From a virus (Duplodnaviria > Heunggongvirae > Uroviricota > Caudoviricetes), in IMG/VR virus record IMGVR_UViG_2617270976_000013, positions 1-18,202 of that record: a stretch of DNA of 18,202 nucleotides; one strand, given 5' to 3'. A program made the translations under genes and the position numbers. The notes below the pieces were generated by a model, which saw only the letters and a program-made list of their open reading frames with translations, was not told the DNA's origin and did no database searches. Shown here one piece after another: positions 1,459 through 17,669 of this stretch; the first letter of the stretch is position 1, and each line of letters opens with the position of its first letter.

Positions 1459-2622
1459 TTACACATCACTAGTACCTTCCTTATTTTTTGACTGGGACAA
1501 ATTTGGGACCGATGGGTTCAGGATCGAGTCTATTTGCCGTGCATGTTCGGTAAGGTGATTAGGTGCGAGGTGAGCATATCGACGAACCATTTCGATAGAC
1601 TCCCAGCCTCCCATTTCCTGTAACACTGACAACGGGACTCCGGCTTGAACCAGCCAACTTGCCCAGGTGTGTCTCAAGTCGTGAAATCTGAAATCATCAA
1701 TACCTGCTCGTCTCAGCGCCGCTTTCCAGGCTGTGTTTGCGTCATACCGCATCTTCCTGACCGTTGGCGCTTTCGTTCCGTCTGGTTTGGTACAGCTTTC
1801 CTTGTACACAAATACCCAACGGTGATGATTCCCGATTTGTTTTTTCAATACGCGACATGCAGTATCATTCAGCGCAACGCCAATTGCGCGGTTTGATTTA
1901 CTCTCTTCCGGGTTTATCCATGCCACCCGGCGCTGCATATCTATTTGTTGCCATTCAAGGTTGATGATGTTCGAGCGTCTTAAGCCTGTTGCCAGTGCAA
2001 ATTCAACAACAGACTTTAATGGCTCCGGACATTCATCAATCAGCCTTTGTGCTTCATGGGGCTCCAGCCAGCGGATCCGTTTATTCTTTGGTTGAGGCAC
2101 TTTAATAATTGGTGCCTTATCCAGCATTTTCCATTCACGCTCTGCGGCTCTTAGTAGGGCCTTTATAAATGAAAGATGCGTAGCCTTCGTTGCAACGGAC
2201 GCTGGTTTTGGCGTGTATTCTGGAACAGGTTTCCCTTTTTTTCTGCATGCTTCTGCCCTGAGTTTCCAGTTTTCCTCATGACGCCGGTTCGTCATTTTCT
2301 GCATTGCTGAATAAATTTTTGATTCAGTAATGTCTCTTAGTTGCATTCCTGCGAAATGTTGAAGCCAGAATCCGATCCGGCTTTTGTCATCGTCCAGTGA
2401 TTTTTTATGTGCTTTCTCTTCAAGCCACCTGACACACGCTTCCTCGAACGTTATATCAGGTATTTCACCAAGTTTGCTGACCCGCCATGCTTCAGCCTTT
2501 AGCTTGTCATGGAGTTCTGTCGCCTGCCTTTTGTCCTTTGTTCCAAGAGACTGTTTAAATCTTTTACCGTTCGGCAATGTGAAACTGGCGTACCATATTT
2601 CACCTCTGCGGAAGAGTGACAT
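1459..2622 (-). CDS. int: tyrosine site-specific integrase, P22-type
   Basis: 387-aa ORF with C-terminal catalytic motifs ([10 protein letters not shown] ... RRYAHL) typical of phage tyrosine recombinases; SD GAGGA upstream of the ATG at 2622; adjacent to the tRNA. Confidence 0.95.
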
Positions 2623-2849
2623 TTTCTTTCCTCTGTTATGCCATCACCCGCGCTCACCTGGACAGTATGCAGCGGAGACTGAAGCGCCGCAATGCAGGCT
2701 TGCCGTGTTGTGAGGTAAGGATATTTTGGCTTGGTTGGATCTTTACGTGTTGCCTGTAGGCGGCCTGTTCGTATCCAGTTGGTGGCGGTTGGTCTGGATA
2801 TCTTAAGAAACTGACAGGCCTCATCGAGTGTGAGGCTGTATGATTCCAT
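2499..2849 (-). CDS. xis: excisionase, P22-type
   Basis: 116-aa product starting [31 protein letters not shown], an HTH-type excisionase; overlaps the int 5' end; SD GAGGT 5 nt upstream of the ATG at 2849. The ORF track start at 2879 was rejected in favour of this ATG. Confidence 0.8.
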
Positions 2850-3099
2850 GGTTACCTCTGCTTTTTGAACGCATGTCACGTAACTTCTTAATGTGTTCTG
2901 CCGTTTCGATCTCTTCTGCTATCCGATCTGCATCAGCTTTATTCACAGGTTCAAAGTCATGATTAAAGCGGAACATGCTGGCGATACATGTTCTGCCTTT
3001 TCGGATGTAGTGAACTTTGTTGTGGGTAGAACGCAGGATTTTGCAGGGAGTGCCGTGGTGGTCGACGTACCAGGTGTTAGGAAAAATGATTCTGAACAT
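2821..3099 (-). CDS. hypothetical phage protein (92 aa)
   Basis: ORF with SD GAGGTG about 7 nt upstream of the ATG at 3099; no family recognised. Confidence 0.5.
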   Translation of the reverse strand: MFRIIFPNTWYVDHHGTPCKILRSTHNKVHYIRKGRTCIASMFRFNHDFEPVNKADADRIAEEIETAEHIKKLRDMRSKSRGNHGIIQPHTR

Positions 3100-3146
3100 T
3101 TTTACACCTCAGTTGGACGATGTTGAAATTTGCTGCTTTGAGGCCA

Positions 3147-3365
3147 TCACAGTCCCCATTGTTTGTTCTTAAGTTCGATCTCCTCCTGGCAACTTGCACA
3201 AGTCCGACAACCCTGAACAGCCAGGCGTCTTCGCTCATCTATCGGATCGCCACACTCACAACAATGAGTTGCGGATACAGTCTGGTAGTTCAGACGACGC
3301 ATTTTTATTGCTGTATTGCGCTGTAATTCTTCGATTTCTGATGCTGAATCAATGATGTCTGCCAT
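3147..3365 (-). CDS. TraR/DksA-family C4-type zinc-finger protein
   Basis: 72-aa product with CCECGDPIDERRRLAVQGCRTCASC, a four-cysteine zinc finger of TraR/DksA type; SD GGAAG upstream. Confidence 0.8.
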   Translation of the reverse strand: MADIIDSASEIEELQRNTAIKMRRLNYQTVSATHCCECGDPIDERRRLAVQGCRTCASCQEEIELKNKQWGL

Positions 3366-3414
3366 CTTCCATTAATCCCTGAATTGTTGGTTAATACGCT
3401 TGAGGATGAATGCG

Positions 3415-3441
3415 AACAATAAAAAAGGAGCCTGTAGCTCC
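3415..3441 (-). terminator. putative intrinsic terminator (minus strand)
   Basis: Hairpin ggagc-ctgta-gctcc (3427-3441); on the minus strand it is followed directly by a T6 run (plus-strand aaaaaa 3421-3426). Confidence 0.4.
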
Positions 3442-3463
3442 CTGATGATTTTGCTTTTCATGT

Positions 3464-3679
3464 TCACCGTTCCTTAAAGACGCCGTTTAACATGCCGATC
3501 ACCAGGCTTAAATGAGTCGGTGTGAATCCCATCAGCGTTACCGTTTCGCGGTGCTTCTTTAGTACGCTACGGCAAATGTCATTGACGTTTTTATCCGGAA
3601 ACTGCTGTCTGGCTTTTTTGATTTCATAATTAGCCTGACGGGCAATGCTGCGAAGGGCGTTATTATGTTCTATTGTCAT
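3464..3679 (-). CDS. hypothetical protein (71 aa), translationally coupled downstream of the 250-aa gene
   Basis: ATG at 3679 with GAGG about 5 nt upstream, 8 nt after the stop of the 250-aa ORF; product MTIEHNNALRSIARQANYEIKKARQ..., no family recognised. The ORF track extends it to 3817 but that overlaps the upstream gene. Confidence 0.5.
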   Translation of the reverse strand: MTIEHNNALRSIARQANYEIKKARQQFPDKNVNDICRSVLKKHRETVTLMGFTPTHLSLVIGMLNGVFKER

Positions 3680-3686
3680 ATTGGCC

Positions 3687-4439
3687 TCACACTTCGAATG
3701 CCAGTTGAGGGGTAAAGACGTCCCGTTCAGCGTTGTAATTAAGTGAACTGGCACTGTTGAATGATTCAATGCGTTCCACAAGAACTTGCGTACGGGTTTC
3801 TTTACTTGCGGGAGCATATGGCGAACCTACCCAGGATTTGTCGATGCCTATATTTCTTGCGACGTTCGTGCTGTCTGCAGACGAAAGCGGTACATGAGTA
3901 AAAATGTCTTTATTTAACATCCGTAACCCATGAATCTTGGTGATTGGGTAGCCGTACTGATCTACAACATGACGTATAAGATCGCGTAGTTTAGCCCGAC
4001 ACGCTCTCGGTCGTTTTGCATCGTATTCCCCCATCGAGCCGATGCAGACGCGGGGAAACTCATGGCACAGACGAATAAATCGCTCATCTGGTTCGTTCAT
4101 GTGCCACACCGGAGCACCAATAAATTTACCGTGAGGCCATGCCGCAATCAGGGCGTCATTCTCTTCACTGGTTCCGCCGATAACATCCGGGATAACCGCG
4201 AATGAGAAACGAGGGTGATTACCCCAGCGTTCAACAAATCTGTAATATTCATTCCAGTCTATGGCCTTGTTTTTTGTCCAGAATGTGAATGCACCATTAT
4301 CAAGAGCAAATGATTGGGTGACTTCGGAAGCCAGATCAATCTGAGCTGGATTAGCAAAACTGATGAATGCGTGTCTGCCTTTCCAGGCTTTCAACGCACA
4401 GGTATCGGGAGTTATTGGACCACCGTGAAAATGAATCAT
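3687..4439 (-). CDS. 250-aa protein with TGT-superfamily (tRNA-guanine transglycosylase-like) motifs; candidate DpdA-type 7-deazaguanine DNA transglycosylase
   Basis: Ordered motifs resembling bacterial Tgt: LDNGAF (46-51) vs TDSGGFQ, AVIPDVIGG (81-89), CIGSMG (132-137) vs VGGL, KDIFTHVP (177-184) vs IDMFDCVMP, TNVARN (191-196) vs TRNARN. No CxCxxC zinc site. The ORF itself is secure; the family call is from a by-eye alignment. Confidence 0.5.
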   Translation of the reverse strand: MIHFHGGPITPDTCALKAWKGRHAFISFANPAQIDLASEVTQSFALDNGAFTFWTKNKAIDWNEYYRFVERWGNHPRFSFAVIPDVIGGTSEENDALIAAWPHGKFIGAPVWHMNEPDERFIRLCHEFPRVCIGSMGEYDAKRPRACRAKLRDLIRHVVDQYGYPITKIHGLRMLNKDIFTHVPLSSADSTNVARNIGIDKSWVGSPYAPASKETRTQVLVERIESFNSASSLNYNAERDVFTPQLAFEV

Positions 4440-4594
4440 ACACTCTCCCGTTTATTATTTATCTCCTCAGCCAGCCGCTGGGCTTTCAGCGGATTTCGGA
4501 TAACAGAAAGGCCGGGAAATACCCAGCCTCGCTTTGTAACGGAGTAGACGAAAGTGATCGCGCCTACCCGGATATTATCGTGAGGATGCTTCAT
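4436..4594 (-). CDS. small protein (52 aa), lambda orf60a-like position immediately downstream of exo
   Basis: ATG overlaps the exo stop (ATGA) and its stop overlaps the ATG of the 250-aa gene (ATGA); product [52 protein letters not shown]. Below the ORF track length cutoff. Confidence 0.5.
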
Positions 4595-5271
4595 CGCCAT
4601 TGCTCCCCAAATACAAAACCAATTTCAGCCAGTGCCACGTCCATTTTTTCGATGAACTCCGGCACCATCTCGTCAAAATTCGCCATGTACTTTTCATTCC
4701 GCTCAATCACGACATAATGCAGTCCTTCACGCTTCATCCGCGGGTCATAGTTGGCAAAGTACCAGGCATCTTTTCGTGTCACCCACATGCTGTACTGCAC
4801 CTGGGCCATGTAAGCCGATTTTATGGCCTCGAAACCACCGAGCCGGAACTTCATGAAATCCCGGGAGGTAAACGGGCATTTCAGCTCAAGGCCATTGCCG
4901 TCACTGCATAAACCATCGGGAGAGCAGGCGGTGCGCATACTTTCGTCGCGATAGATGATCGGGGATTCAATAACATTTACGCCGGAAGTGAACTCAAACA
5001 CGGTTCTGGCGTCGTTCTCGTACTGTTTTCCCCAGGCCAGCGCTTTAGCGTTAACTTCCGGAGCCACACCGGTGCAAACCTCAGCCAGCAGGGTGTGGAA
5101 GTAGGACATTTTCATGTCAGGCCACTTCTTTCCTGATCGGGGCTTTGCTATCACGTTGTGAACTTCTGAAGCGGTGATGACGCCGAGCCGTAATTTGTGC
5201 CATGCATCATCCCCCTGTTCGACAGCTCTCACGTCGATCCCGGTACGCTGCAGGATAATGTCCGGTGTCAT
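4591..5271 (-). CDS. exo: lambda-type 5'-3' exonuclease (Red alpha)
   Basis: 226-aa product [40 protein letters not shown]... matches lambda Exo along its length; ATGA overlap with bet. Confidence 0.95.
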
Positions 5272-6053
5272 GCTGCCACCTTCTGCTCAGTGGCTTTCTG
5301 TTTCAGGAATCCAAGAGCTTTCACTGCTTCGGCCTGTGTCAGTTCTGACGATGCGCGAATGTCGCGGCGAAATATCTGGGAACAGAGCGGCAATAAGTCG
5401 TCATCCCATGTTTTATCCAGGGCGATCAGCAGAGTGTTAATCTCCTGCATGGTTTCATCGTTAACCGGAGTGATGTCGCGTTCTGGCTGACGTTCTGCAG
5501 TGTATGCTGTATTTTCGACAATGCGCTCGGCTTCATCCTTGTCATAGATACCAGCAAATCCGAAGGCCAGACGGGCACACTGAATCATGGCTTTATGCCG
5601 TAACATCCGTTTGGGATGCGACTGCCACGGCCCCGTGATTTCTCTGCCTTCGCGGGTTTTGAATGGTTCGCGGCGGCATTCATCCATCCATTCGGTAACG
5701 CAGATCGGATGATTACGGTCCTTGCGGTAAATCCGGCATGTACAGGATTCATTGTCCTGCTCAAAGTCCATGCCATCAAACTGCTGGTTTTCATTGATGA
5801 TGCGGGACCAGCCATCAACGCCCACCACCGGAACAATGCCGTTCTGCTTATCAGGGAAGGCGTAAATTTCTTTCGTCCACGGATTAAGGCCGTACTGGTT
5901 GGCGACGATCAACAATGCGATGAACTGCGCATCGCTGGCATCACCTTTAAATGCCGTCTGGCGAAGAGTGGTGATCAGTTCCTGTGGGTCGACAGAATCC
6001 ATGCCGACACGTTCAGCCAGCTTCCCTGCCAGCGTTGCGAGTGCTGTACTCAT
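5268..6053 (-). CDS. bet: lambda-type single-strand annealing protein (Red beta)
   Basis: 261-aa product [66 protein letters not shown]... matches lambda Bet. Confidence 0.95.
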
Positions 6054-6058
6054 CCGTT

Positions 6059-6355
6059 TTATACCTCTGAATCAATATCAAACTGGTGGTGAGCAATGGT
6101 TTCAACCATGTACCGGATGTGTTCTGCCATGCGCTCCTGAAACTCAACATCGTCATCAAACGCACGGGTAATGGCTTTTTTGCTGGCCCCGCAGCGTTGC
6201 AAATGATCGATACAGAGTGATTCAAACAGGTGCTGTGGAAGACCTTTTTCCATGTCGTCTGCCAGTTCTGCCTCTTTCTCTTCACGGGCGATCTGCTGGT
6301 AGTGACGTGCCCAGCTCTGAGCCTCAAGACGATCCTGAATGTAATAAGCGTTCAT
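6059..6355 (-). CDS. gam: RecBCD inhibitor Gam (short, GamS-like form)
   Basis: 98-aa product [47 protein letters not shown]... matches lambda Gam; SD AGGAG 8 nt upstream. The in-frame upstream extension has a stop and no ATG. Confidence 0.9.
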
Positions 6356-6431
6356 GGCTGAACTCCTGAAAATGGCTGTGAAAATATCGCCTGCGAAATG
6401 CCAGGCTGATTAGGAAAACAGGAAAGGGGGG

Positions 6432-6590
6432 TTAGTGATTCAGGCCGTTACCGCGTCCGTCGAGAAAAACTTCCACGAGCAAATCACGGGTATAAGTGCG
6501 CTCGATGCCGCGATGCAGATATAGCCGTCCGCGTAAATTAGCTGATGCAGTCCAGGTACCATCTTTGTGTTTGACCAGCATTCCTGGCAT
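6432..6590 (-). CDS. small ORF (52 aa) in the kil/cIII position, function unknown
   Basis: ATG at 6590 preceded by GAGGTG (5-nt spacer); product MPGMLVKHKDGTWTASANLRGRLYLHRGIERTYTRDLLVEVFLDGRGNGLNH; below the ORF track cutoff. Overlapping alternative ORFs exist in other frames. Confidence 0.35.
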   Translation of the reverse strand: MPGMLVKHKDGTWTASANLRGRLYLHRGIERTYTRDLLVEVFLDGRGNGLNH

Positions 6591-6899
6591 GACCGCACCT
6601 CAATTAACGGTCTGCATTCCGTAATGTTGATGAACCATAAAAACTCCTGCCCGTAAGCTGGGCTGCTGAACATATAGAGACTTCTGCGCGTATTCAGGCG
6701 GTGGATGGCCGCCGGTTGTCATAACTAAGCCGCCTCGTTGAAGCGACTGAGGTATGAAATGTTGAGTTAATTTCAGCTGGTCACACCGACGTTCACGCGT
6801 CCGTTTCACCCCTCGCACTCCCCGAAGCCTGCTGAAATTCAAACTGCGGATCTAAGCGGTCATCGCAACGGTGAATCAGGTAGTTGCCGTATCGTTGTG

Positions 6900-6990
6900 T
6901 TGTTGCGATGAACTTATTTAAAACTACAGTTGTTTTATCGTCAACAACAAAAGTTGTTTTATTGGTTGTTTTAGATATAACTGGTTGTAT
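6900..6990 (-). promoter_or_regulatory. putative leftward early promoter and operator array (pL/OL-like)
   Basis: Minus strand reads TTGACG, 17 nt, TTAAAT; overlapping repeats of TAAAACAAC/GTTGTTTT in direct and inverted orientation (plus strand agttgttttatcgtcaacaacaaaagttgttttattggttgtttta). Confidence 0.4.
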
Positions 6991-7085
6991 TTAGGATGGA
7001 TTTATTTTGTGACTTGAATCGCATAGCGATAACTGAAGCGAGGTTATGGTGGTTTTTTTAACGGTGTGTGTGATGAGGGGGGGGG

Positions 7086-7113
7086 CAAAAGAAAACCCGG
7101 CACGGTGACCGGG
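7086..7113 (-). terminator. putative intrinsic terminator downstream of the repressor gene (minus strand)
   Basis: GC stem cccgg (7096-7100) / ccggg (7109-7113) with an 8-nt loop; on the minus strand followed by TTTTCTTTT and then a C9 tract (plus-strand G9 at 7077-7085). Confidence 0.4.
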
Positions 7114-7234
7114 ATTCTTACGCCGTTAGGTAAAGATATTATTGCGGTGGCTTAATATTACTACCTAGAGCAAAGATAGGAATTAGTTCTTTACTGAATG
7201 AGCACAATGCCCAGTTGATAATTTTTAATTGGTA

Positions 7235-7924
7235 CTACCCATGCTTCCTATATGTCTGCGGCATGCTCCCAATAACCTTACCGAAGATGAACACCCGGTT
7301 CATCTCGTCTTTCTCGATCGGGTCCCACGGTGAGTAGCTTTTGTTATCAGAGATGACCAGCAGCTTATCCTTCATCATTTGCAGGCGCTTTACATGGGCT
7401 GTGTCGTCGTACAGAAACGCATAGATACCATCACCGTCGAAAGATTTAACTGTGATATCAACGAACAGCAGATCACCTGGTTCGATCGTTCCTGACATGC
7501 TGTCACCACGCACGTTAATGATGCGGATATTTTCCGCCTTCCTACCATCGAACATGTGACGAGCATCGTCAAACGAGTACTCAACCGAGCGTAGAACTTC
7601 TACAAACTCACGGTTGATGACTCCCGGCCCAGCACTGACTTCTATATCAAGAACGTCAATCTTGAAGTATTTGGAATGGCTGACAGTTGATTGTATTGGT
7701 TGCACTGTACTGTCTGACATATTTCCAACGCCAGAAGATAACCATTCTGCGCGCACACCCAAAGCGTTCGCGATCTCCACGATTTTAGTTGTTTGATTAG
7801 CTTTCCCTGTTTCGATTTTCTGAATAGCAGCCTGGCTAACCCCGACCAAATCCCCAAGCGCCTTTTGTGTAAGGCCTCGCGCTAATCTGGCTTCTTTAAG
7901 TCTTTCTGAGAGTGTTGTTTTCAT
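7235..7924 (-). CDS. cI: CI-like prophage repressor, HTH plus S24 (LexA-type) peptidase domain
   Basis: 229-aa product MKTTLSERLKEARLARGLTQKALGDLVGVSQAAIQKIETGK... with C-terminal GDSM and VKRL (Ser/Lys dyad context). Start chosen at ATG 7924 (not 7990) to leave a 105-bp operator region; no SD, consistent with a leaderless mRNA. Confidence 0.9.
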   Translation of the reverse strand: MKTTLSERLKEARLARGLTQKALGDLVGVSQAAIQKIETGKANQTTKIVEIANALGVRAEWLSSGVGNMSDSTVQPIQSTVSHSKYFKIDVLDIEVSAGPGVINREFVEVLRSVEYSFDDARHMFDGRKAENIRIINVRGDSMSGTIEPGDLLFVDITVKSFDGDGIYAFLYDDTAHVKRLQMMKDKLLVISDNKSYSPWDPIEKDEMNRVFIFGKVIGSMPQTYRKHG

Positions 7925-8028
7925 AGTCCAAATGTACAACCAAGGTTTTATTCCATCAAACGAAAATGGTTGTTGACTAAAAACAACCATGGTTTTAATC
8001 TTGATTCAAATTAACCACGGAGGTTGTT
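7925..8028. promoter_or_regulatory. divergent promoter/operator region (OR, pR, pRM-like)
   Basis: Three operator-like sites sharing AACCA/TGGTT half-sites (caaccaaggtttt, aaaatggttgttg, aaaacaaccatggtttt with perfect palindrome aaccatggtt). Rightward TTGACT (7973-7978) then TTTAAT; leftward TTGATG, 17 nt, TACATT ending about 7 nt before the repressor ATG. Confidence 0.55.
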
Positions 8029-8259
8029 ATGAACCCAGCTATCAAAACAGCGATCAATATCGTTGGTTCACAAAAGAAACTGGGCGCTGCTTGCGAAGTT
8101 TCACAGCAGGCCGTCTATAAGTGGCTTCACAACAAAGCAAAGGTATCCCCTGAACATGTCGGCAGCATTGTTACGGCTACTGGTGGAGTAGTGAAGGCAT
8201 ACCAGATTCGCCCGGATCTTCCGAAGTTGTTTCCACACACCGAAAAGAACGCAGCTTAA
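8029..8259 (+). CDS. cro: Cro-like HTH regulator (YdaS-like)
   Basis: 76-aa product MNPAIKTAINIVGSQKKLGAACEVSQQAVYKWLHNKAKVSPEH...; SD GGAGG 5 nt upstream; divergent from the repressor across the operator region. Confidence 0.85.
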   Translation: MNPAIKTAINIVGSQKKLGAACEVSQQAVYKWLHNKAKVSPEHVGSIVTATGGVVKAYQIRPDLPKLFPHTEKNAA

Positions 8260-8271
8260 ATTTCCATTTCA

Positions 8272-8284
8272 CGCTCTTTAACAA
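8272..8284 (+). promoter_or_regulatory. boxA-like element (nutR-equivalent position)
   Basis: CGCTCTTTAACAA, 12 nt after the cro stop, closely matching the boxA consensus (CGCTCTTTA / rrn TGCTCTTTAACAA); no convincing boxB hairpin follows. Confidence 0.5.
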
Positions 8285-8328
8285 TAAGCAATCAACTTAA
8301 CAGTCAATTCAAACTAAAGGAGTCAATT

Positions 8329-8868
8329 ATGCAACCACTTACATACCAACAGACTAGCGGATTTAGCCCGACTGCGGTGATAAATCGTTCTCAAACAAAA
8401 CAGGTGCCAGGCCACGAAAAGATCCGTGATGCCGTCCGCGCCTGGTCGGCTGTAGATAATCAGGATGTCGTTGCCACACTCATTGTGAATGAGTATCGGG
8501 AGCAGGGCGGCGGCACCATCGATTTCCCTGATGATGTCAGCCGTGCACGCCAGAAGCTGTTCCGCTTCCTCGATAACAAATTCGATTCTGAAAAATACCG
8601 AAATAACGTGCGTGAACTGACCCCGGCAATTCTGGCGGTACTACCGCTGGAATATCGCGGTTACCTGGTTGAGCAGGATAGCTTCATGGCTAGGTTGGCT
8701 GAAATGGAAAAGGAACTCAGTGAGGCAAAACAGGCTGTCATTCTCAACGCACCACGCCACCAGAAACTGAAGGAAATTAGTGAAGGTATTGTGTCGATGT
8801 TTCGTGTGGACCCAGATCTGGCTGGTCCATTGATGGCGATGGTTACTACCATGCTGGGGGCGATATGA
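8329..8868 (+). CDS. CII-position regulator, YdaT-family
   Basis: 179-aa product; segment ARQKLFRFLDNKFDSEKYRNNVRELTPAILAVLP resembles Rac YdaT ARNTQKIFRWVEKDTPDAVEKMQALLPAIEKSMP; strong SD AAGGAG; follows cro as cII does in lambda. Confidence 0.7.
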   Translation: MQPLTYQQTSGFSPTAVINRSQTKQVPGHEKIRDAVRAWSAVDNQDVVATLIVNEYREQGGGTIDFPDDVSRARQKLFRFLDNKFDSEKYRNNVRELTPAILAVLPLEYRGYLVEQDSFMARLAEMEKELSEAKQAVILNAPRHQKLKEISEGIVSMFRVDPDLAGPLMAMVTTMLGAI

Positions 8869-8954
8869 CAGGTTCAGAAATGGCGAAAGCCGGTCTGCTG
8901 GAACAGAACCGACTTTCAGGTGCAAACCGTAACACACTCATTGCGGGAGGAATT

Positions 8955-9560
8955 ATGGCAAACACTGCTGAGATATTCAATTTTCCAGTGCCGGATGTGG
9001 CACAAAAGGAGCCGCGCGTGGCAGATCTCGATGATGGTTATACGCGCATTGCAAATGAGTTGCTGGAAGCTGTGATGCTGGCCGGATTAACACAGCACCA
9101 GCTTCTGGTCTTCCTGGCTGTCATGCGCAAAACATATGGCTTTAATAAAAAACTGGATTGGGTGAGCAACGAGCAACTTTCCGAGTTGACCGGGATATTG
9201 CCGCACAAGTGTTCTGCTGCAAAAAGTGTTCTGGTAAAGCGTGGGATTTTTATTCAGAGCGGGCGGAATATCGGCATTAATAATGTGGTCAGTGAATGGT
9301 CAACATTACCCGAATCAGGTAAGAAAAATAAAGTTTACCTGAAAGAGGTAAATTTACCTGAATCAGGTAAGAAAAGTTTACCCAAATCAGGTAAAGACGT
9401 TTACCCGAATCAGGTAAACACAAAAGACAAACTAACAAAAGACAATATAAAACCTTTTTCGTCCGAGAATTTTGGCGAATCCTCTGACCAGCCAGAAAAC
9501 GATCTTCCTGTGGTGAAACCGGATGCTGCAATTCAGAGCGGCAGCAAGTGGGGGATCTGA
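8955..9560 (+). CDS. O: replication initiator, lambda O-like (N-terminal origin-binding domain)
   Basis: 201-aa product; VADLDDGYTRIANELLEA...LAVMRKTYGFNKK matches lambda O (VADLDDGYARLSNMLLEA...LRKTYGWNK); SD GGGAGG upstream of ATG 8955; contains iterons. Shorter than lambda O. Confidence 0.85.
   Translation: MANTAEIFNFPVPDVAQKEPRVADLDDGYTRIANELLEAVMLAGLTQHQLLVFLAVMRKTYGFNKKLDWVSNEQLSELTGILPHKCSAAKSVLVKRGIFIQSGRNIGINNVVSEWSTLPESGKKNKVYLKEVNLPESGKKSLPKSGKDVYPNQVNTKDKLTKDNIKPFSSENFGESSDQPENDLPVVKPDAAIQSGSKWGI
9306..9418. repeat. origin iterons (ori) inside the O gene
   Basis: Four to five copies of about 18 bp TTTACCYRAATCAGGTAA (starts near 9306, 9333 degenerate, 9353, 9377, 9400), each internally palindromic (ACCTGA-a-TCAGGT), followed by an AT-rich stretch (9418-9462). 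Confidence 0.7.
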
Positions 9561-9609
9561 ATGGAGCGTTAATGATGCAGCGGATATCATCAGGTGCCTA
9601 GTACGGGTG

Positions 9610-9861
9610 ATGGAGATCATCAAGCAGGATAGCCAGCAGAAAGAAGGTAATCAGGCATTAATGTTGAAACAGTACTTTGTTAATCTGCTAATAATGGAAC
9701 TGTACGAGGAAGTTCATAACGGTGATGCGGCTGATTCTGTTTTTAAAAGTACGGAACCTACACAAGTACTTGATAACTTATGGAGCAAATGGCAGGAGGC
9801 TATAGCTATTTTTGATATTTGGAATTACCCAGTTGCGACTGAGGAAGACTTGGCAGACTAA
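9610..9861 (+). CDS. hypothetical protein (84 aa) in the position normally occupied by a helicase loader
   Basis: ORF from ATG 9610 (MEIIKQDSQQKEGNQALMLKQYFVNLLIMELYEE...); no similarity to lambda P or DnaC recognised; start uncertain. Confidence 0.4.
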   Translation: MEIIKQDSQQKEGNQALMLKQYFVNLLIMELYEEVHNGDAADSVFKSTEPTQVLDNLWSKWQEAIAIFDIWNYPVATEEDLAD

Positions 9862-10055
9862 TTTTCAGCACATTTGATTTCCAATAATCAACCAGCCATA
9901 ATCATGCCATTGGAGCCTGAACAACTCCGGTGACTTCTGCGCTAAACGGGGACGTTTATGCGCACATACAATCCAACCTATCTTCTCCATTCACAGATGC
10001 AGAAATGCACCTGCGTTTTTTTGCATCCAACGTTTGACCTCTGCGGAGGTGAAGC

Positions 10056-10511
10056 GTGAACCTCCCACAAGACGGTATCAAATTGCATCGCGGTAACTTC
10101 ACCGCTATCGGTCAGCAGATCCAGTCTTATCTGGAGGACGGCAAATGCTTTCGCATGGTGCTTAAACCGTGGCGCGAAAGACGCAGTCTTTCCCAGAATG
10201 CACTCAGCCACATGTGGTACAGCGAAATCAGCGAGTACCTCATCAGCAGGGGGAAAACGTTCGCTACTGCAGTATGGGTAAAAGATGCACTCAAACACAC
10301 ATACCTCGGTTATGAAACCAAGGACTTGGTTGATGTCGTAACCGGCGAAATCACTACTATCCAGTCGTTACGCCATACCTCCGATCTTGATACCGGAGAG
10401 ATGTATGTCTTCCTGTGTAAGGTTGAAGCCTGGGCGATGAATATTGGCTGCCACCTGACTATTCCGCAGAGCTGCGAGTTCCAGCTGCTGCGCGACAAGC
10501 AGGAGGCGTAA
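10056..10511 (+). CDS. ninB: NinB/Orf-family recombination protein (YbcN-like)
   Basis: 151-aa product with [17 protein letters not shown] motif (lambda NinB RSLDQNRKLWACLGDVS); GTG start with GGAGG 6 nt upstream. Confidence 0.85.
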
Positions 10512-10681
10512 TGGCTACACCGCTTATTCGGGTCATGAACGGACACATCTACAGAGTACCAAATCGTCGTAAGCGTAAACCGGAGCTGAAGCCTTCCGAA
10601 ATACCAACACTGCTCGGATATACCGCCAGCCTGGTTGATAAAAAATGGTTGCGACTGGCAGCAAGGAGGAATCATGGCTGA
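10511..10681 (+). CDS. ninE: NinE-like small protein
   Basis: 56-aa product [56 protein letters not shown]; SD AGGAGG; TAATG overlap with ninB; below the ORF track cutoff. Confidence 0.65.
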   Translation: MATPLIRVMNGHIYRVPNRRKRKPELKPSEIPTLLGYTASLVDKKWLRLAARRNHG

Positions 10682-10964
10682 TTTGAGAAAAGCAGCGCGT
10701 AGTCGGGAATGCCAGGTAAGAATCCCTGGCGTATGTAATGGCAACCCTGAAACGTCTGTACTGGCACATATCCGGCTGACTGGATTGTGCGGCACCGGTA
10801 CCAAACCGCCAGACCTGATTGCCACCATTGCATGTTCTGCCTGCCACGACGAAATCGACCGCCGCACACATTTTGTCGATGCTGCATATGCAAAAGAATG
10901 CGCGCTGGAAGGTATGGCGAGAACACAGGTTATCTGGCTGAAAGAGGGGGTTATTAAGGCGTGA
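10674..10964 (+). CDS. YbcO-like cysteine-rich protein (DUF1364-type)
   Basis: 96-aa product [34 protein letters not shown]...[11 protein letters not shown] with conserved Cys/His; SD AGGAGGA; same order (ninB-like, ninE, ybcO, rusA) as in the DLP12 prophage. Confidence 0.75.
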
Positions 10965-11323
10965 ATACCTACAGCATCACATTACCCTGGCCTCCGAGCA
11001 ATAATCGCTATTACCGCCATAATCGCGGGCGCACGCACGTCAGCGCAGAGGGGCAGGCATACCGCGATAACGTCGCCCGAATCATTAAAAACGCAATGCT
11101 GGATATCGGCCTGGCTATGCCTGTGAAAATCCGCATTGAGTGCCACATGCCGGATCGCCGTCGCCGTGACCTGGATAATCTGCAAAAAGCCGCTTTTGAC
11201 GCACTCACTAAAGCAGGTTTCTGGCTGGATGATGCTCAGGTCGTTGATTACCGTGTTGTGAAGATGCCTGTTACCAAAGGTGGGAGGCTGGAACTGACCA
11301 TCACCGAAATGGGGAATGAATGA
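10961..11323 (+). CDS. rusA: Holliday junction resolvase RusA
   Basis: 120-aa product [74 protein letters not shown]... closely matches E. coli RusA; GTGA overlap with the upstream gene. Confidence 0.9.
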
Positions 11324-11460
11324 TGTTTGAGTTTTATATGGCAGAACTTCTTCGCCACCGCTGGGGGCATCTGCGCTTATATCGTTTCCCCGGTTCTGTT
11401 TTGACCGATTACCGAATACTGAAGAATTACGCCAAAACCCTGACAGGAGCAGGAGTATGA
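11320..11460 (+). CDS. ylcG: YlcG-like small protein
   Basis: 46-aa product [46 protein letters not shown]; ATGA overlap with the rusA stop. Confidence 0.65.
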
Positions 11461-11545
11461 AGCCAGAGATAACAATCAACTAATACTGTTTTATTGATTT
11501 TTGCTTGTAATTGGCGTTCTGGTCTGATTTTTGTGGAGTAAGTTG

Positions 11546-11929
11546 ATGCGTGATATTCAGATGGTTCTTGAGCGTTGGGGAGCGTGGGCGGCTAATAATC
11601 ATGAAGATGTGACCTGGTCGTCCATTGCCGCCGGTTTTAAGGGATTAATTCCTTCAAAAGTAAAATCTCGCCCGCAATGTTGTGACGATGACGCGATAAT
11701 CATTTGCGGGTGCATGGCCCGTCTGAAAAAGAACAACAGCGATTTGCACGATTTATTAGTAGATTATTATGTAGTCGGTATGACATTCATGTCACTGGCA
11801 GGTAAGCATTGCTGCTCTGATGGTTATATCGGGAAAAGGTTACAGAAGGCTGAGGGTATAATTGAAGGGATGTTAATGGCATTAGATATCCGGTTAGAGA
11901 TGGATATCGTTGTTAATAACTCTAATTAA
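11546..11929 (+). CDS. late-gene antitermination protein Q (QuuD-like)
   Basis: 127-aa product [60 protein letters not shown]... with the Cys cluster of Q-family antiterminators; SD GGAG upstream. Confidence 0.9.
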
Positions 11930-11941
11930 TATGCCAATTGT

Positions 11942-11970
11942 TTACTAAAAATTATTAAAAATGGGGCGTT
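11942..11970 (-). terminator. putative intrinsic terminator for the porin gene (minus strand)
   Basis: Stem ggggcg / cgcccc with loop ttgaga (11953-11970); on the minus strand followed by ATTTTTAATAAT. Confidence 0.45.
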
Positions 11971-12117
11971 GAGACGCCCCCAAAAATAAAGGGTAATATA
12001 TAACAGAAGGTTTATATAGTTAGAAGCAAGTTTGTGCTCATAAAGGAAGTGGTTTGAGGGAGCCATTTATATGTGGGGGAGGAAAAGCCCCCCGCAACAT
12101 ATCTTTTAGTAATCAAA

Positions 12118-13200
12118 TTAGAACTGGTAAACCATACCTACAGCAACGATATCATCGGTAGCAACGCCAGATGCTTTCGTGAAATCGCTCTTATCAATCA
12201 GGTTGATTTTGTAATCAACAAAAGTGGACATATTTTTGTTGAAGTAATAGGTTGCACCTACATCAATATATTCAACCAGGTCCTGATCACCCCACGCACC
12301 CAAGTCTTTTCCTTTAGATTGCAGGTAAGCAACGGACGGACGCAGACCGAAGTCGAACTGATATTGTGCAACTACTTCGAAGTTTTGTGCTTTGTTGGCA
12401 ATATGGTTATTACCAAAAACAGTCATGTTCTGGGTTTCAGAATAGGTGGTAGCCAGATAGATGTTGTTCGCATCATATTTCAGACCAGCTGCCCATACTT
12501 CAGCATTTTGACCAGATGCATTCAGGCTGTTGTTACCGTAGATAACCTGATTATTAGTGCGGTCAGATTTAGCATAGGTTGCACCTACACCGAATCCTTC
12601 ATACTCATAAGTAGTGGAGAAACCGAAACCATCACCATTAGCTTCAGTTACGTCAGTGCGGTCATTTTTACCCTGATACTGAGCAGCAAAGTTCAGACCA
12701 TCAACCAGACCAAAGAAGTCATTGTTACGATAAGTTGCAACACCTGTGGTGCGACCAGTCATGAATACATCTGTTTGGGTCCAGGTATCGCCACCGAATT
12801 CTGGCAGAACGTCGGTCCATGCACCAATATCGTATGCTACACCGTAGTTACGGCCATAATCGATGGAGCCGTAGTCACCGAATTTCAGGCCAGCGAAGGC
12901 AAGACGGGTTTTATCTTTGGAGGAACCTTGAGATTCAGCGCGGTTGCCTTTGAATTCATATTCCCACTGACCGAAACCAGTCAGTTGATCGTTGATTTGG
13001 GTTTCACCTTTGAAGCCAAGACGGGCATAAGTAGTATCACCATCATCTGCATCATTAGAGGAGAAGTAGTGCTTAGCATTAACTTTCCCGTACAGATCCA
13101 GCTTGTTACTGTCTTTATTATAAATTTCAGCTGCCTGAGCAGACATCGCCATCAGTACTGATGCAGTTACAGCAGAAATTGCCACTGTTAATTTTTTCAT
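12118..13200 (-). CDS. OmpC/NmpC-family outer-membrane porin (prophage moron)
   Basis: 360-aa product with signal peptide [23 protein letters not shown], Gly/Tyr/Asn-rich beta-barrel composition and C-terminal F (..VGMVYQF); lies between Q and the lysis genes in opposite orientation, as nmpC does in DLP12. Confidence 0.9.
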
Positions 13201-13626
13201 CGTGAGCCCTTTTTTTGAACTATTATTAAAAAATGATGTCACTGCGCGATAAATATTCATCTAATCAATGTGATTATTTCAAGATGTAAGTTTTGGTTTC
13301 TCATTTGATTTGTGAAGTAGATCTCTATTTTTATCTGAACTTTTTCTATCGAATCCTATTCATGGCTCTTGGCTGAATAAAAATAAATCTATTAGCCAAT
13401 TTATATTAATGGCTGTTATTTATAAGTGCTCTATAATTTGAAGGTTCAATTTAAATCGGCTAAAAATAACGCTGGAAATTATTTGTTGGTTATTTGTTGA
13501 GATTTGCTTATGTATTTGTAGTGGTGTTTTCAATACTCGGTAGCATTCTCGCAAATATCATTTAGTGGTTTACGTACGTAAAAAATTGGTTATGCTGTTA
13601 AGAGTGGTTACTTCGTCACACAGCTT

Positions 13627-13659
13627 AAACCCGCCGTCGAGCGGGTTTTTCCATTTTTT
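13627..13659 (+). terminator. intrinsic terminator upstream of the lysis cassette
   Basis: Stem aaacccgc / gcgggttt with loop cgtcga, followed by tttttccatttttt on the plus strand, about 110 nt before the holin start. Confidence 0.5.
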
Positions 13660-13771
13660 GAGTCTCGATATTAGCTGATAACCCAATACCTGAGTTATTC
13701 ACTGACTCCGAGTCTGTTACGTTTCGTAGTATTCCCTCAATTTACACCCGCTTTGTCTGCGAGGTGGGGTT

Positions 13772-13987
13772 ATGAAATCCATGGATAAGTTAACAACGGG
13801 TGTCGCCTATGGCACCTCAGCAGGTAGTGCCGGGTACTGGTTTTTACAGCTGCTAGATAAAGTCACGCCCTCACAGTGGGCGGCAATTGGAGTGCTGGGT
13901 AGCCTGGTATTTGGCCTGCTGACGTACCTGACAAACCTTTATTTCAAGATTAAAGAAGATAAGCGCAAGGCTGCGAGAGGTGAATAA
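13772..13987 (+). CDS. S: class II holin (phage 21 S-type pinholin) with dual-start motif
   Basis: 71-aa product [71 protein letters not shown]; two TM helices; Met1 and Met4 (MKSM); SD GAGGTGGGG. Confidence 0.9.
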
Positions 13988-14484
13988 TGCCTCCATCATT
14001 ACGAAAAGCCGTTGCTGCTGCTATTGGTGGCGGAGCAATTGCTATAGCATCAGTGTTAATTACTGGCCCAAGTGGTAACGATGGTCTGGAAGGTGTCAGC
14101 TACATACCATACAAAGATATTGTTGGTGTATGGACTGTATGTCACGGGCATACAGGAAAAGACATCATGCTCGGTAAAACGTATACCAAAGCAGAATGCA
14201 AAGCCCTCCTGAATAAAGACCTTGCCACGGTCGCCAGACAAATTAACCCGTACATAAAAGTTGATATACCGGAAACAACGCGCGGCGCTCTTTACTCGTT
14301 CGTTTACAACGTGGGCGCTGGCAATTTCAGAACATCGACGCTTCTTCGCAAAATAAACCAGGGCGATATCAAAGGCGCATGTGATCAGCTACGTCGCTGG
14401 ACATATGCTGGCGGTAAGCAATGGAAAGGTCTCATGACTCGTCGTGAGATTGAGCGTGAAATCTGTTTGTGGGGTCAGCAATGA
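13987..14484 (+). CDS. R: SAR endolysin (T4-lysozyme-like muramidase with signal-anchor-release domain)
   Basis: 165-aa product; N-terminal Gly/Ala-rich weakly hydrophobic segment [18 protein letters not shown] followed by a Glu, Asp, Thr catalytic spacing ([15 protein letters not shown]); TAATG overlap with the holin. Confidence 0.9.
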
Positions 14485-14941
14485 ACAGAGTAACCGCGAT
14501 TATCTCCGCTCTGGTTATCTGCATCATCGTCTGCCTGTCATGGGCTGTTAATCATTACCGTGATAACGCCATTACCTACAAAGCCCAGCGCGACAAAAAT
14601 GCCAGAGAACTGAAGCTGGCGAACGCGGCAATTACTGACATGCAGATGCGCCAGCGTGATGTTGCTGCACTGGATGAAAAATACACGAAGGAGTTAGCTA
14701 ATGCGAAAGCTGAAAATGATGCTCTGCGTGATGATGTTGCCGCTGGTCGTCGTCGGTTGCACATCAAAGCAGTCTGTCAGTCAGTGCGTGAAGCCACCAC
14801 CGCCTCCGGCGTGGATAATGCAGCCTCACCCGACTGGCAGACACCGCTGAACGGGATTATTTCACCCTCAGAGAGAGGCTGATCACTATGCAAAAACAAC
14901 TGGAAGGAACCCAGAAGTATATTAATGAGCAGTGCAGATAG
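14481..14941 (+). pseudogene. Rz: Rz (i-spanin) disrupted by a -1 frameshift
   Basis: N-terminal about 113 aa ([45 protein letters not shown]...) is lambda Rz-like, but the frame runs into ...[19 protein letters not shown] (the Rz1 C-terminus) and stops at 14882; the lambda Rz C-terminus [31 protein letters not shown] is in another frame ending at 14941. Confidence 0.7.
14701..14850 (+). pseudogene. Rz1: Rz1 (o-spanin lipoprotein), C-terminally altered by the same frameshift
   Basis: Embedded [52 protein letters not shown] (49 aa) with lipobox VVVGC; lambda Rz1 continues ...[21 protein letters not shown] (60 aa), sequence that here sits in the Rz frame. Confidence 0.6.
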
Positions 14942-14972
14942 AGCTGCCCATATCGATGGGCAACTCATGCAA

Positions 14973-15266
14973 TTATTGTGAGCAATACACACGCGCTTCC
15001 AGCGGAGTATAAATGCCTAAAGTAATAAAACCGAGCAATCCATTTACGAATGTTTGCTGGGTTTCTGTTTTAACAACATTTTCTGCGCCGCCACAAATTT
15101 TGGCTGCATCAACAGTTTTCTCCTGTCCAATTCCCGAAACGAAGAAATGATGGGTGATGGTTTCCTTTGGTGTTACTGCTGTCGGTTTGTTTCCAACAGT
15201 AAACGTCTGTTGAGCACATCCTGTAATAAGCATTGCCAGAGCGGCAGAAAACAACATTTTTTTCAT
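14973..15266 (-). CDS. bor: Bor lipoprotein (serum-resistance moron)
   Basis: 97-aa product MKKMLFSAALAMLITGCAQQTFTVGNKPTAVTPKETITHHFFVSGIGQEKTVDAAKICGGAENVVKTETQQTFVNGLLGFITLGIYTPLEARVYCSQ with lipobox LITGC; matches lambda Bor. Confidence 0.9.
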   Translation of the reverse strand: MKKMLFSAALAMLITGCAQQTFTVGNKPTAVTPKETITHHFFVSGIGQEKTVDAAKICGGAENVVKTETQQTFVNGLLGFITLGIYTPLEARVYCSQ

Positions 15267-15446
15267 CTTATTATCCTGCATTGTTAAAAACGGCAGAATC
15301 CTATGTGACAACAATTAAACGATAGTTAAATGGATTGATGAAAATTAAAACTATATAGGTGTACGGTCAGACTATTGGAGGTAGTCAGGATTTGAATGTC
15401 AGTCTGTTGTCGGCATTCTGGCAATGCAATTTGGATAAAGCGGGGA

Positions 15447-15569
15447 TTAAAAAGATAGAGGCGAGCCGGTCAGGTAGAAATGAATCAGGCTCAAAGTGAA
15501 GCGGAAAAGGTCTGTGGCACAAGCTGATGCAGCCATAATTACAGCCTGATGATTTGTGGAATGAAACAT
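15447..15569 (-). CDS. candidate small hydrophobic ORF (40 aa), unverified
   Basis: ATG at 15569 preceded by GGAGG with a 6-nt spacer; product MFHSTNHQAVIMAASACATDLFRFTLSLIHFYLTGSPLSF; no homolog recognised. Confidence 0.25.
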   Translation of the reverse strand: MFHSTNHQAVIMAASACATDLFRFTLSLIHFYLTGSPLSF

Positions 15570-15649
15570 GTTGAACCTCCTTAATTGATGTTATTCGAGT
15601 GATGAAGGCATTCTGTCCTTCTATAGTGTCCAGTAAATCAAACAGGAAA

Positions 15650-15705
15650 CTTGTCCAACGTGTTGGACAAGCCTCTCCATTAGTGAGTTGTATTGATCAC
15701 AACTC
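15650..15705. repeat. pair of inverted repeats of unknown function
   Basis: cttgtccaac-gt-gttggacaag (15650-15671, perfect 10-bp arms) and gagttgt-attgatc-acaactc (15685-15705, 7-bp arms); lie between bor and the tail-module remnant with no flanking T-run. Confidence 0.6.
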
Positions 15706-15808
15706 TACAAAGAATTCATTACTGGGTAGATGAAAATAGTTTCACGATGAATGGAGGAGGCTATGTCGGTGGCTTCTTCATTGGAGTATCCGCGAATGCC
15801 TGCAATGG

Positions 15809-15964
15809 ATGATTGATGACGGCGTGGTGTCCCGTATTGATCTGGATATCCGCCGCACCGGGATTAATGAACTGGGTAACAGTATCACTCTCTGGCGTCG
15901 TGACGGACCGGTAATGATTTCTTTTGATGATCTGTGGAGTGCGATAACGCATGGCGGACAGTGA
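15809..15964 (+). pseudogene. truncated ORF overlapping the J start, possibly the 3' remnant of an upstream baseplate gene
   Basis: Open frame from the stop at 15737 to 15964 encoding ...MIDDGVVSRIDLDIRRTGINELGNSITLWRRDGPVMISFDDLWSAITHGGQ; overlaps J by 14 nt as upstream baseplate genes often do; no SD or N-terminal domain. Confidence 0.3.
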
Positions 15965-16871
15965 ATTTCAGCGCCCGACGCTGGCAGAAAATATCAGTAT
16001 GCTCCGTAACGATTTATTCGCCAGGCTGGACGTCAGCGACACGCTCCGGCGCATGGATGAAGACGTGCGGGCAAAGGTGTATGCGGCGGCGCTGCATACG
16101 GTTTACGGTTACATCGATTATCTGGCAATGAACATGCTGCCTGACCTGTGCGATGAGTCCTGGCTGGCGCGACATGCTGCGATGAAACGGTGTCCGCGCA
16201 AGGGGGCCACGGCTGCCAGCGGGTATATGCGCTGGGAAGGTGTCAGCGATGGCCTGAAGGTGACTGCCGGGAGTGTTATTCAGCGCGATGACCTGGTTCA
16301 GTACACGGCAACTGCCGATGCAACCAGCTCCGGTGGTGTCCTGCGCGTGCCGATCGCCTGCTCAAGTGCAGGCGCGGTCGGTAACGCTGACGACGGTACG
16401 TCATTAATCCTGGTCACGCCGGTGAATGGTCTGCCGTCTTCCGGCGTGGCAGACACTCTGACAGGTGGATTTGATACTGAAGAGCTGGAAACGTGGCGCG
16501 CCCGCGTCATTGAGCGGTATTACTGGACGCCTCAGGGCGGGGCTGACGGGGACTATGTTGTCTGGGCTAAAGAAGTGCCAGGCATTACCCGTGCATGGAC
16601 ATACCGCCACTGGATGGGAACGGGGACTGTCGGTGTGATGATTGCCAGCAGTGACCTGATTAATCCCATTCCGGAAGAATCAACGGAAACGGCGGCAAGA
16701 CAACACATTGAGCCACTGGCCCCGGTGGCAGGCTCTGATTTGTATGTATTCAGGCCGGTGGCGCATAAAGTGGATTTTCATATCCGCGTGACGCCGGACA
16801 CACTGGAAATACGGGCTGCCATCACCGCCGAGTTGCGTTCGTTCCTGCTGCGTGATGGTTATCCGGAGTAA
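15951..16871 (+). CDS. baseplate assembly protein J-like (P2 gpJ family)
   Basis: 306-aa product MADSEFQRPTLAENISMLRNDLFARLDVSDTLRRMDEDVRAKVYAAALHTVYGYIDYLAMNMLPDL... recognised as the P2 J / e14 JayE baseplate family. Confidence 0.8.
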   Translation: MADSEFQRPTLAENISMLRNDLFARLDVSDTLRRMDEDVRAKVYAAALHTVYGYIDYLAMNMLPDLCDESWLARHAAMKRCPRKGATAASGYMRWEGVSDGLKVTAGSVIQRDDLVQYTATADATSSGGVLRVPIACSSAGAVGNADDGTSLILVTPVNGLPSSGVADTLTGGFDTEELETWRARVIERYYWTPQGGADGDYVVWAKEVPGITRAWTYRHWMGTGTVGVMIASSDLINPIPEESTETAARQHIEPLAPVAGSDLYVFRPVAHKVDFHIRVTPDTLEIRAAITAELRSFLLRDGYPE

Positions 16872-17095
16872 TCCATGCATCGTATAGATACGAAAGACAG
16901 CTATTAATTAATCAGGCCAACGAATACATGAACAGTAAACAATGGCCCGGTAAAACCGCTATTGGTCGTCTGAAAGGCGAGGAACTGGCGCAATATAATT
17001 CGTGGCTGGATTATCTGGACGCACTGGAGCTGGTTGATACCTCCAGTGTGCCAGATATTGAATGGCCTACGCCTCCGGCAGTTCAGGCCAGATGA
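16872..17095 (+). pseudogene. tail fibre assembly protein remnant (C-terminal part only)
   Basis: Frame open from the J stop encodes ...ERQLLINQANEYMNSKQWPGKTAIGRLKGEELAQYNSWLDYLDALELVDTSSVPDIEWPTPPAVQAR, the conserved C-terminal region of Tfa chaperones, with no N-terminal domain; converges on and overlaps the complete tfa on the other strand. Confidence 0.5.
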
Positions 17096-17669
17096 CATCA
17101 GGCGCGGTGCTGGTATCAGTTGCCGTCACCGCGTCAATGTAATCCAGCACAGCGTTAAGGCTGGTTGTTTCTGCCTGCGTCAGTTTACGTCCGGCCTGCA
17201 ATTTCAGCTGAATCAGACTGATTGAAGCCATTGCAGTATCAATCAGTGACTGGCGCTGTGCTTCTGCTGCATCTACTGCGGCGCTATGCTGTGCTTCGGT
17301 ATCCGTCACCCATTTCTCACCATCCCATTTATCGTATGGCGTTAACGGGGCGATAGTGGTTGTATTATCAGGGTAATCACCCGGAGCTGTGATTTCTTTT
17401 GACTCTCCCGTTTTGGTGCTATAGACGATTTCACCGCGATGGTCTGGCACATATTCCCATGAGTTAAAATTTGCAGAACGACAGATAGCATAACCCGCCT
17501 TATGTGTGCCAGGGGCATCTAAACAGGAATATGCAGGAATACCGACACCAATGGCAAGATATTCAGTTGATGCTGAAATATATTCCTGCGTCTCACTATC
17601 ATAGTTATAAACGGTAATATCCCCCGACTTTGTAGCAATAAGCTCACTATTTAATATTGCTTTATCCAT
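17067..17669 (-). CDS. tfa: tail fibre assembly protein (Tfa chaperone)
   Basis: 200-aa product ending ...QSLIDTAMASISLIQLKLQAGRKLTQAETTSLNAVLDYIDAVTATDTSTAPDVIWPELPEA, the characteristic Tfa C-terminus; start overlaps the stop of the upstream tail-fibre ORF (TAATG). Confidence 0.85.
   Translation of the reverse strand: MDKAILNSELIATKSGDITVYNYDSETQEYISASTEYLAIGVGIPAYSCLDAPGTHKAGYAICRSANFNSWEYVPDHRGEIVYSTKTGESKEITAPGDYPDNTTTIAPLTPYDKWDGEKWVTDTEAQHSAAVDAAEAQRQSLIDTAMASISLIQLKLQAGRKLTQAETTSLNAVLDYIDAVTATDTSTAPDVIWPELPEA

Follow-up and report, generated by a model that had tools for sequence, protein, structure and literature searches.

A truncated lambda-type O gene with no helicase loader behind it: the probable scar of one deletion in a cryptic lambdoid prophage

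How could a lambda-type replication module operate when no gene for a helicase loader follows the initiator gene O? This question is raised by a stretch of 18,202 nucleotides from a virus of the Caudoviricetes (IMG/VR record IMGVR_UViG_2617270976_000013, positions 1 to 18,202), which is referred to here as the window. A first-pass annotation, made from the letters alone, noted that no such gene lies between the stop codon of O (9560) and ninB (10056), and offered two readings: either replication depends directly on host factors or the module is defective. In lambda, the iterons are bound by the N-terminal part of O, and its C-terminal part makes contact with P, the protein that brings in DnaB.

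The window is 100% identical to part of a draft contig, JNQT01000010.1 (assembly GCA_000704325.1). On its sequence, the element is a lambdoid (DLP12/e14-like) prophage integrated at tRNA-Thr(CGU) beside proA, and the tRNA gene, an integrase gene and a duplicated att core are all present. The att core (56 bp) is repeated 5.7 kb past the end of the window (L012 17975-18030), and the element is about 22.5 kb in size versus about 41.5 kb for the intact prophage G1/2. For the integrase and the small ORFs of 1459-2865, the assignment comes solely from homology to the annotated G1/2 prophage. The general layout is comprised of the following features:

Start of the window: proA, with tRNA-Thr(CGU) next to it.
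1369-1444: tRNA-Thr(CGU), the sole Rfam match in the window.
1459-2622: integrase ORF.
Listed after the integrase: exo, bet and gam.
7235-7990: S24-type, cI-like repressor gene, full length.
8029-8259: YdaS-like cro.
8329-8868: YdaT-domain analogue of cII.
10056-10511, plus strand: ybcN, a gene of the NinB/YbcN family (orf151 of phage 82) and the first to be intact past the probable scar.
From ybcN onward: nin-Q-lysis block of the DLP12/phage-82 type, with ybcN, ninE, ybcO, rusA, ylcG, quuD, a porin gene (opposite strand), essD, rrrD, rzpD and bor/iss.

The assignment of ybcN rests on a match to NCBIfam NF007281 over positions 1-151 of 151 (E 2e-82), and the gene is annotated as ybcN in Ec1119 and G1/2. 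Two intact cargo genes are carried by the decayed prophage, namely an OmpC/NmpC-type porin gene between Q and the lysis genes (12118-13260, minus strand) and a Bor/Iss lipoprotein gene after the lysis genes (14973-15314, minus strand). A cassette at 3661-4437 differs from the G1/2 prophage and has an ORF at 3687-4439 (minus strand, 250 aa). The product of this ORF matches positions 11-266 of 509, the first half only, of phrog_887, labelled 'queuine tRNA-ribosyltransferase', whereas Pfam, NCBIfam and PADLOC gave no match for it; the gene may be truncated or divergent.

The region between the cII analogue and ybcN contains the following features:

8865-9560, plus strand: O', a truncated lambda-type initiator gene, 231 aa from the upstream ATG, with TGA at 9558-9560.
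9306-9422, no strand: five iterons with the palindromic core TTACCYGAATCAGGTAA, inside the O' coding sequence.
9420-9465, to the right of the iterons: A/T-rich stretch including the tandem ACAAAAGACAA (repeat D2), read directly.
9553-9555: deletion joint, a 3-bp microhomology (GGA) common to both parental sequences.
9556-9861, plus strand: 3' remnant of a 169-aa nin-region gene (phrog_1779), codons 69-169 and the stop codon; codon 68 is the GGA of the joint.
9874-9902, plus strand: promoter-like site, TTGATT-17 bp-CATAAT, from a consensus scan.
9958-10059, plus strand: 33-codon ORF, homologue of phage 82 orf33 (annotated in X92588), overlapping the start of ybcN.
9996-10027, plus strand: hairpin with a run of seven T (terminator-like site 9995-10021), inside the orf33 homologue.

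The absence of a loader gene stands, both for the gap between O and ninB, where the tblastn and Pfam records are empty, and for the rest of the element: no relative of P, DnaC or DnaB occurs anywhere in its approximately 22.5 kb. When P (of lambda and of PhiR34_1), ren and the O C-terminus were compared with the window by tblastn, only noise was returned (best E 1.0; for the two P proteins, best E 2.0), and the addition of emrE, ybcK and the P22AR-C protein to the query set gave noise as well (best E 0.37). Pfam gave nothing for the ORFs in 9561-10055. For the genes called in window 2865-15560 and over the 8.6 kb beyond the right end of the window, the recorded Pfam families comprise neither helicases nor loaders, and no DnaB-family helicase or IstB/DnaC-like ATPase is found next to the initiator, as in the P22 18/12 type. 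These statements combine a direct Pfam scan of eight window ORFs and two proteins from relatives with the Pfam families on record for the other genes. The P protein of the relatives matches phrog_109, 'P-like helicase loader'.

The O protein itself has lost its end. O' comprises 201 aa when counted from the lambda-equivalent ATG at 8955. It contains the N-terminal origin-binding domain (PF04492, Phage_rep_O, residues 51-145, E 4e-34; TIGR01610, phage_O_Nterm, E 1e-23) and the acidic linker, and covers positions 1-206 of the 318 of phrog_277. In a four-way alignment with lambda O (299 aa) and intact O proteins, the similarity stops at G230, which is equivalent to lambda residue 190. The protein then ends ...SGSKWG, a single foreign codon (Ile) and the stop codon, and is out of frame past the joint. 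The estimate that O is about 100 aa shorter than lambda O was therefore sound, since the last 109 of the 299 residues are missing; over this part, lambda does not differ from the intact relatives. The C-terminal domain had been described as reduced; the loss is real, but the domain (lambda O ~191-299) is wholly absent, and tblastn finds no trace of it in the window. With regard to other O proteins, PHROGs keeps separate families for an N-terminal part of about 232 aa (phrog_2365) and a C-terminal part of about 124 aa (phrog_2357), which suggests that O is split, or annotated as two pieces, near the post-origin linker in a number of phage genomes.

The origin has been left in place. The iterons form a direct-repeat family (D1) of five copies, 68-100% identical, spaced 19-29 bp apart and each internally palindromic; the O gene of lambda carries four iterons at this position. 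By its position, the A/T-rich stretch at 9420-9465 would be the retained counterpart of the origin unwinding region of lambda. The N-terminal domain of O' may thus still bind, or assemble on, the five intact iterons. With neither a C-terminal domain in O' to dock P-DnaB nor P itself, however, recruitment of the helicase would be impossible and the origin dead. Because of these two losses, the origin would be unable to fire on its own, unless a related co-resident phage supplied full-length O and P in trans. The lambda mutations Oam8 and Oam205, which leave 205 and 294 aa, respectively, are both listed among the original null O mutations (PMC6022878), and O', the equivalent of 190 residues, would fall into the same class. 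An induced prophage fragment is also reported to lose origin firing when O or P is inactivated by an insertion or a deletion (PMC3640518).

Intact relatives show what is missing. Plaque-forming phages such as PhiR34_1 and PhiR5_1 encode O (309-339 aa), then P, then ren, and the prophages of G1/2 and of E. coli Ec1119, which occupy the same proA/tRNA-Thr site, have O, P and ren in this order too. The modules of PhiR34_1, PhiR5_1, G1/2 and Ec1119 are of the lambda O-P type and share with the window the same O allele (98-99% at the nucleotide level), the Phage_rep_O domain, iterons within the gene, the A/T-rich stretch and the acidic linker, as well as the same upstream genes (cI-like repressor, YdaS-like cro and YdaT-like analogue of cII). 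P directly follows this O allele in every intact relative examined, and some of the phage records list E. coli K-12 or C as the host. The window differs from these modules in that the C-terminal 109 residues of O, P and ren are absent and the module ends at the 9553-9555 joint.

The joint can be placed to the base. Pairwise BLAST shows that window 8934-9555 corresponds to positions 1-622 of the Ec1119 locus (L002), inside O (98.4%), and that window 9553-15165 corresponds to L002 5001-10648, beginning within the gene for the 169-aa protein; the 4,378 bp between them (L002 623-5000) are missing from the window. When the joint is viewed base by base, both parental arms match perfectly and overlap by GGA alone. 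In a megablast comparison with phage genomes, similarity to the intact phages PhiR34_1, PhiR5_1, 4A7 and others (97-99%) covers the cII analogue and O and ends abruptly at 9555; homology to intact O ending at 9555 is seen with PhiR34_1 (98.7% over 5.1 kb), Ec1119 and G1/2. In Ec1119, O is followed by P, ren, emrE, a small ORF, ybcK, the P22AR-C gene, the gene for the hypothetical 169-aa protein, an ORF of 33 aa and ybcN. Relative to this layout, the window lacks the 109 final codons of O, all of P, ren, emrE, the small ORF, ybcK and the P22AR-C gene, and the first 67 codons of the 169-aa gene. What the ancestor carried from O to the 169-aa gene is a reconstruction from the relatives; G1/2 and Ec1119 differ there, with P directly after O in both. 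As the sequence reads, the joint is the signature of one illegitimate-recombination deletion of about 4.4 kb between two GGA triplets.

The sizeable ORF noted in the gap, described as 84 aa, is indeed present; it is called at 9610-9861 with 83 aa, and its longest frame (9523-9861, 112 aa) begins at an ATG inside O'. It was said to be the only ORF there, which overlooked the 33-codon ORF at 9958-10059. The remnant matches positions 66-169 of the 169 in phrog_1779 (E 3e-59), and the full-length Ec1119 protein matches positions 1-169 (E 1e-102). The ORF is therefore a gene fragment without its own start and first 67 codons. No known recruitment factor emerged from the profile searches that had been proposed for this ORF: neither the remnant nor its 169-aa parent has a match in Pfam, NCBIfam or PADLOC, and in PHROGs they match only phrog_1779, whose function is not assigned. 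Against PDB sequences, the parent gave nothing meaningful (best E 0.026, unrelated helical proteins). The 83-aa product and its parent were also considered as a substitute loader, and this was rejected because intact relatives carry the parent gene alongside O and P.

Downstream of the remnant, the region appears as it does in the relatives. The promoter-like site is native to the nin region and unaffected by the deletion, and the homologous spot in phage 82 (X92588) is annotated as a putative -35/-10. Its -35 element falls in an inverted repeat, TTGATT-N6-AATCAA (9874-9891), upstream of orf33-ybcN. The half-sites of this repeat are invariant across four relatives, and its spacer differs in Ec1119, G1/2 and phage 82. 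The repeat is the sole match in the window, with a chance expectation of 0.12 and at least one match in 23 of 200 shuffled sequences. It agrees exactly with the motif that has been reported for the operator of the CP-933P prophage protein YdaT (PMC9986795). For the YdaT-domain protein of the window (8329-8868), no PDB chain matches detectably at the sequence level, and the specificity of the CP-933P protein is for this reason not transferable to it. The orf33 homologue is a 33-aa hypothetical protein in Ec1119 and G1/2.

The first-pass annotation also placed a hairpin followed by a run of seven T near 9990-10020, and such a structure is present at 9995-10021. It is native to the nin region and unrelated to the deletion, being conserved in Ec1119, G1/2 and phage 82 with the T-run variants TTTTTTT, ATTTTTT and ATATTTT. 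In its best fold (-13.5 kcal/mol, z -4.8), the T-run is paired and makes up the 3' arm, which leaves no free U tail, so that the hairpin is not a canonical terminator; in a weaker alternative fold, the stem is followed by TTTT. A simple scan found one terminator-like site, versus 0.9 expected from shuffled sequences. Given this chance-level count and the paired T-run, the site is unconvincing as a terminator. It lies just upstream of ninB, where lambda has tR2.

A second lesion lies further to the right and is compared here with the G1/2 prophage (L008):

15787-15788: second deletion joint, where the region downstream of bor is joined directly to the GP46/baseplate-J region.

Window 15717-15788 corresponds to L008 31101-31030 and window 15787-16864 to L008 15422-14345. 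The 15.6 kb lost relative to G1/2, from the HNH gene up to the GP46 gene, hold both terminase subunits and the portal, protease, capsid, connector, sheath, tube, tape measure and baseplate genes. A further break at 16864/16913 has truncated the baseplate-J gene (ORF 15951-16871) and removed ymfQ, and the truncated baseplate-J protein is also found in the Logan runs ERR14760663 and SRR1186598. In comparison with intact relatives, genes for lytic growth have thus been lost through both the 4,378-bp and the 15.6-kb deletions. From a dead origin together with the deletion of head and tail genes, it follows that the element would be a cryptic prophage that is replicated only passively with the chromosome.

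Some other observations concern the right end. Between the window and attR (L012 12282-18557), there are a 42-aa resolvase (pin) remnant, a gene for a 629-aa GmrSD-type (DUF262/DUF1524) nuclease, umuC fragments, two ORFs of no assigned function and a ParA-like ATPase, a cargo unlike that of G1/2. Beyond this cargo lie a LysR remnant and then paoD and paoC. A look-up of the tail-fibre assembly protein returned P2-like and Mu-like prophages, which are unrelated.

Taken together, 9561-10055 is very probably the scar of a single deletion in a cryptic prophage, which has left a dead replication module behind. Of the two readings offered at the outset, the defective module is borne out by the mapped joint, the absence of the O C-terminal domain and the loss of P. 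The comparison with intact relatives that had been recommended points the same way, as O, P and ren are present in them and 4,378 bp are missing here. Direct dependence on host factors fails, since the same O allele has P next to it in every intact relative examined and O' ends out of frame.

The occurrence of the joint bears on how this scar should be read. At least 80% of the YdaT-O-P block is present in 2,169 of 5,426 complete E. coli genomes, while the joint is in none of them (no record spans 9400-10200); 180 of the complete genomes match only from 9553 or 9554 onward. The joint was not found in GTDB representative genomes or JGI metagenomes either. The 40-nt joint sequence does occur in the Logan assemblies of SRR1186598 and SRR15343552, whose loci (L015 and L016) carry the joint. 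SRR15343552 is identical to the window over 1,819 bp. SRR1186598 differs by 7 substitutions in 6,252 bp and also has the second deletion. A look-up of the exact O' protein had suggested that the arrangement was unique to one assembly; this was dropped when a look-up of the 83-aa remnant gave the two further runs, which the first look-up had missed because gene callers picked another O' start there. No second remnant of the type 'O N-terminus only' was found among 60 records sampled across 3,627 matches.

Among the alternatives, the one that survives best would make the remnant a domesticated interference module: the retained origin and an O' blind to P could block superinfecting phages with the same iterons, in a dominant-negative manner, by titrating O or occupying the origin. 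The deletion has left exactly the iterons and the DNA-binding domain intact, and effects of this kind are on record. Plasmids with oop and lambda iterons 3-4 are described to exclude rep-lambda phages, an 'inhibition phenotype' (PMC3349717), and ectopic origin copies are reported to arrest lambda proliferation (PMC4488673). However, the published effects are plasmid-borne, whereas the origin is present here as a single chromosomal copy. O' lies downstream of an immunity region whose cI-like repressor gene is full length, and it should therefore be silent in the lysogen. In addition, an Rfam scan detected no oop-like or other phage RNA family in the window. The remnant is confined to one small lineage and no second one was seen in the 60 sampled records, so that there is no sign of recurrent selection. 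On balance, such an interference function is very improbable.

It is more improbable still, to the point of being barely credible, that the arrangement is a natural module that works without a loader, in which a short O recruits host DnaB/DnaC directly or via the 83-aa protein and P is not needed. The complete origin-binding domain of O', its iterons and its A/T-rich region would suit such a module, and the phrog_2365 family attests that O-like proteins of about 232 aa exist. On the other hand, the deletion joint is clean and only a single codon separates it from the out-of-frame stop of O, the 83-aa ORF is what remains of a gene found alongside O and P in intact relatives, the arrangement is seen in none of the 5,426 complete E. 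coli genomes, the lambda ambers with longer products are listed as null (PMC6022878), and the element is devoid of head genes and of most tail genes as well.

An assembly artefact, in which a draft contig wrongly fuses the O gene to the nin region, has an equally negligible probability: although the window is identical to a draft contig and neither the complete E. coli genomes nor the GTDB representative genomes contain the joint, the two sides share 3 bp only, which gave the assembler no repeat to collapse, and independent assemblies of two other runs arrive at the identical joint. One of these runs (SRR1186598) differs from the window by 7 substitutions in 6.2 kb and so represents separate data. 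The deletion is thus real and inherited in a small lineage, since the same joint recurs in two other runs and a 3-bp overlap cannot mislead an assembler.

The deletion reading also has close parallels. DLP12 of E. coli K-12 is likewise a defective lambdoid prophage with a deletion in its replication region, and has the same ybcN, ninE, ybcO, rusA, ylcG, quuD, porin, essD, rrrD and rzpD set as the window, in the order exoD-peaD-renD-emrE-ybcK ... ybcN-ninE-ybcO-rusA-ylcG-quuD-nmpC-essD-rrrD-rzpD. The two deletions are different. K-12 has lost the immunity region, O and most of P, keeps the last 312 bp of P beside an exonuclease remnant, and has kept ren, emrE and ybcK. In the window, it is the immunity region and the origin-bearing N-terminal part of O that remain, and P, ren, emrE and ybcK that are gone. 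The sites differ as well: the window prophage is at tRNA-Thr next to proA, not at argU, the site of DLP12. A laboratory parallel is provided by the lambda O amber mutants and by the replicative-killing-defective (RK-) survivors of induced lambda prophage fragments, both from the Hayes laboratory; in the survivors, insertions or deletions in O or P abolish firing (PMC3640518). These survivors were selected in the laboratory and carry non-excisable fragments, in contrast to the window prophage, which retains its integrase and both att cores.

Other, independent lesions of this region were noted in E. coli (among the loci, L003 1044-1649), including the exo'-'P joint of DLP12 in K-12, a bet-ren joint in strain 300490, a ymfQ'-'P joint in ML35, and insertions of IS1203 or IS3 in P in O157 strains and FT130. 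It seems that prophage decay often strikes gene P. The P protein is reported to be toxic, and cells are killed when the origin of a trapped prophage fires (PMC3640518); recurrent lesions in the P region fit the toxicity of P and of in-situ origin firing, although a single case is no test of the idea. Selection by replicative killing was considered as the cause of the present deletion and downgraded to speculation; because the integrase and both att cores have been kept, neutral decay explains the data equally well.

The locus is thus a case of ordinary prophage decay, an event of an already known kind and not a new mode of replication. It adds one more base-exact joint to the many independent lesions around gene P in E. 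coli prophages, and has little meaning beyond annotation. For annotation, the O gene should be recorded here as a truncated pseudogene, the 83-aa ORF as a gene fragment, and the prophage as cryptic and defective for both replication and morphogenesis.
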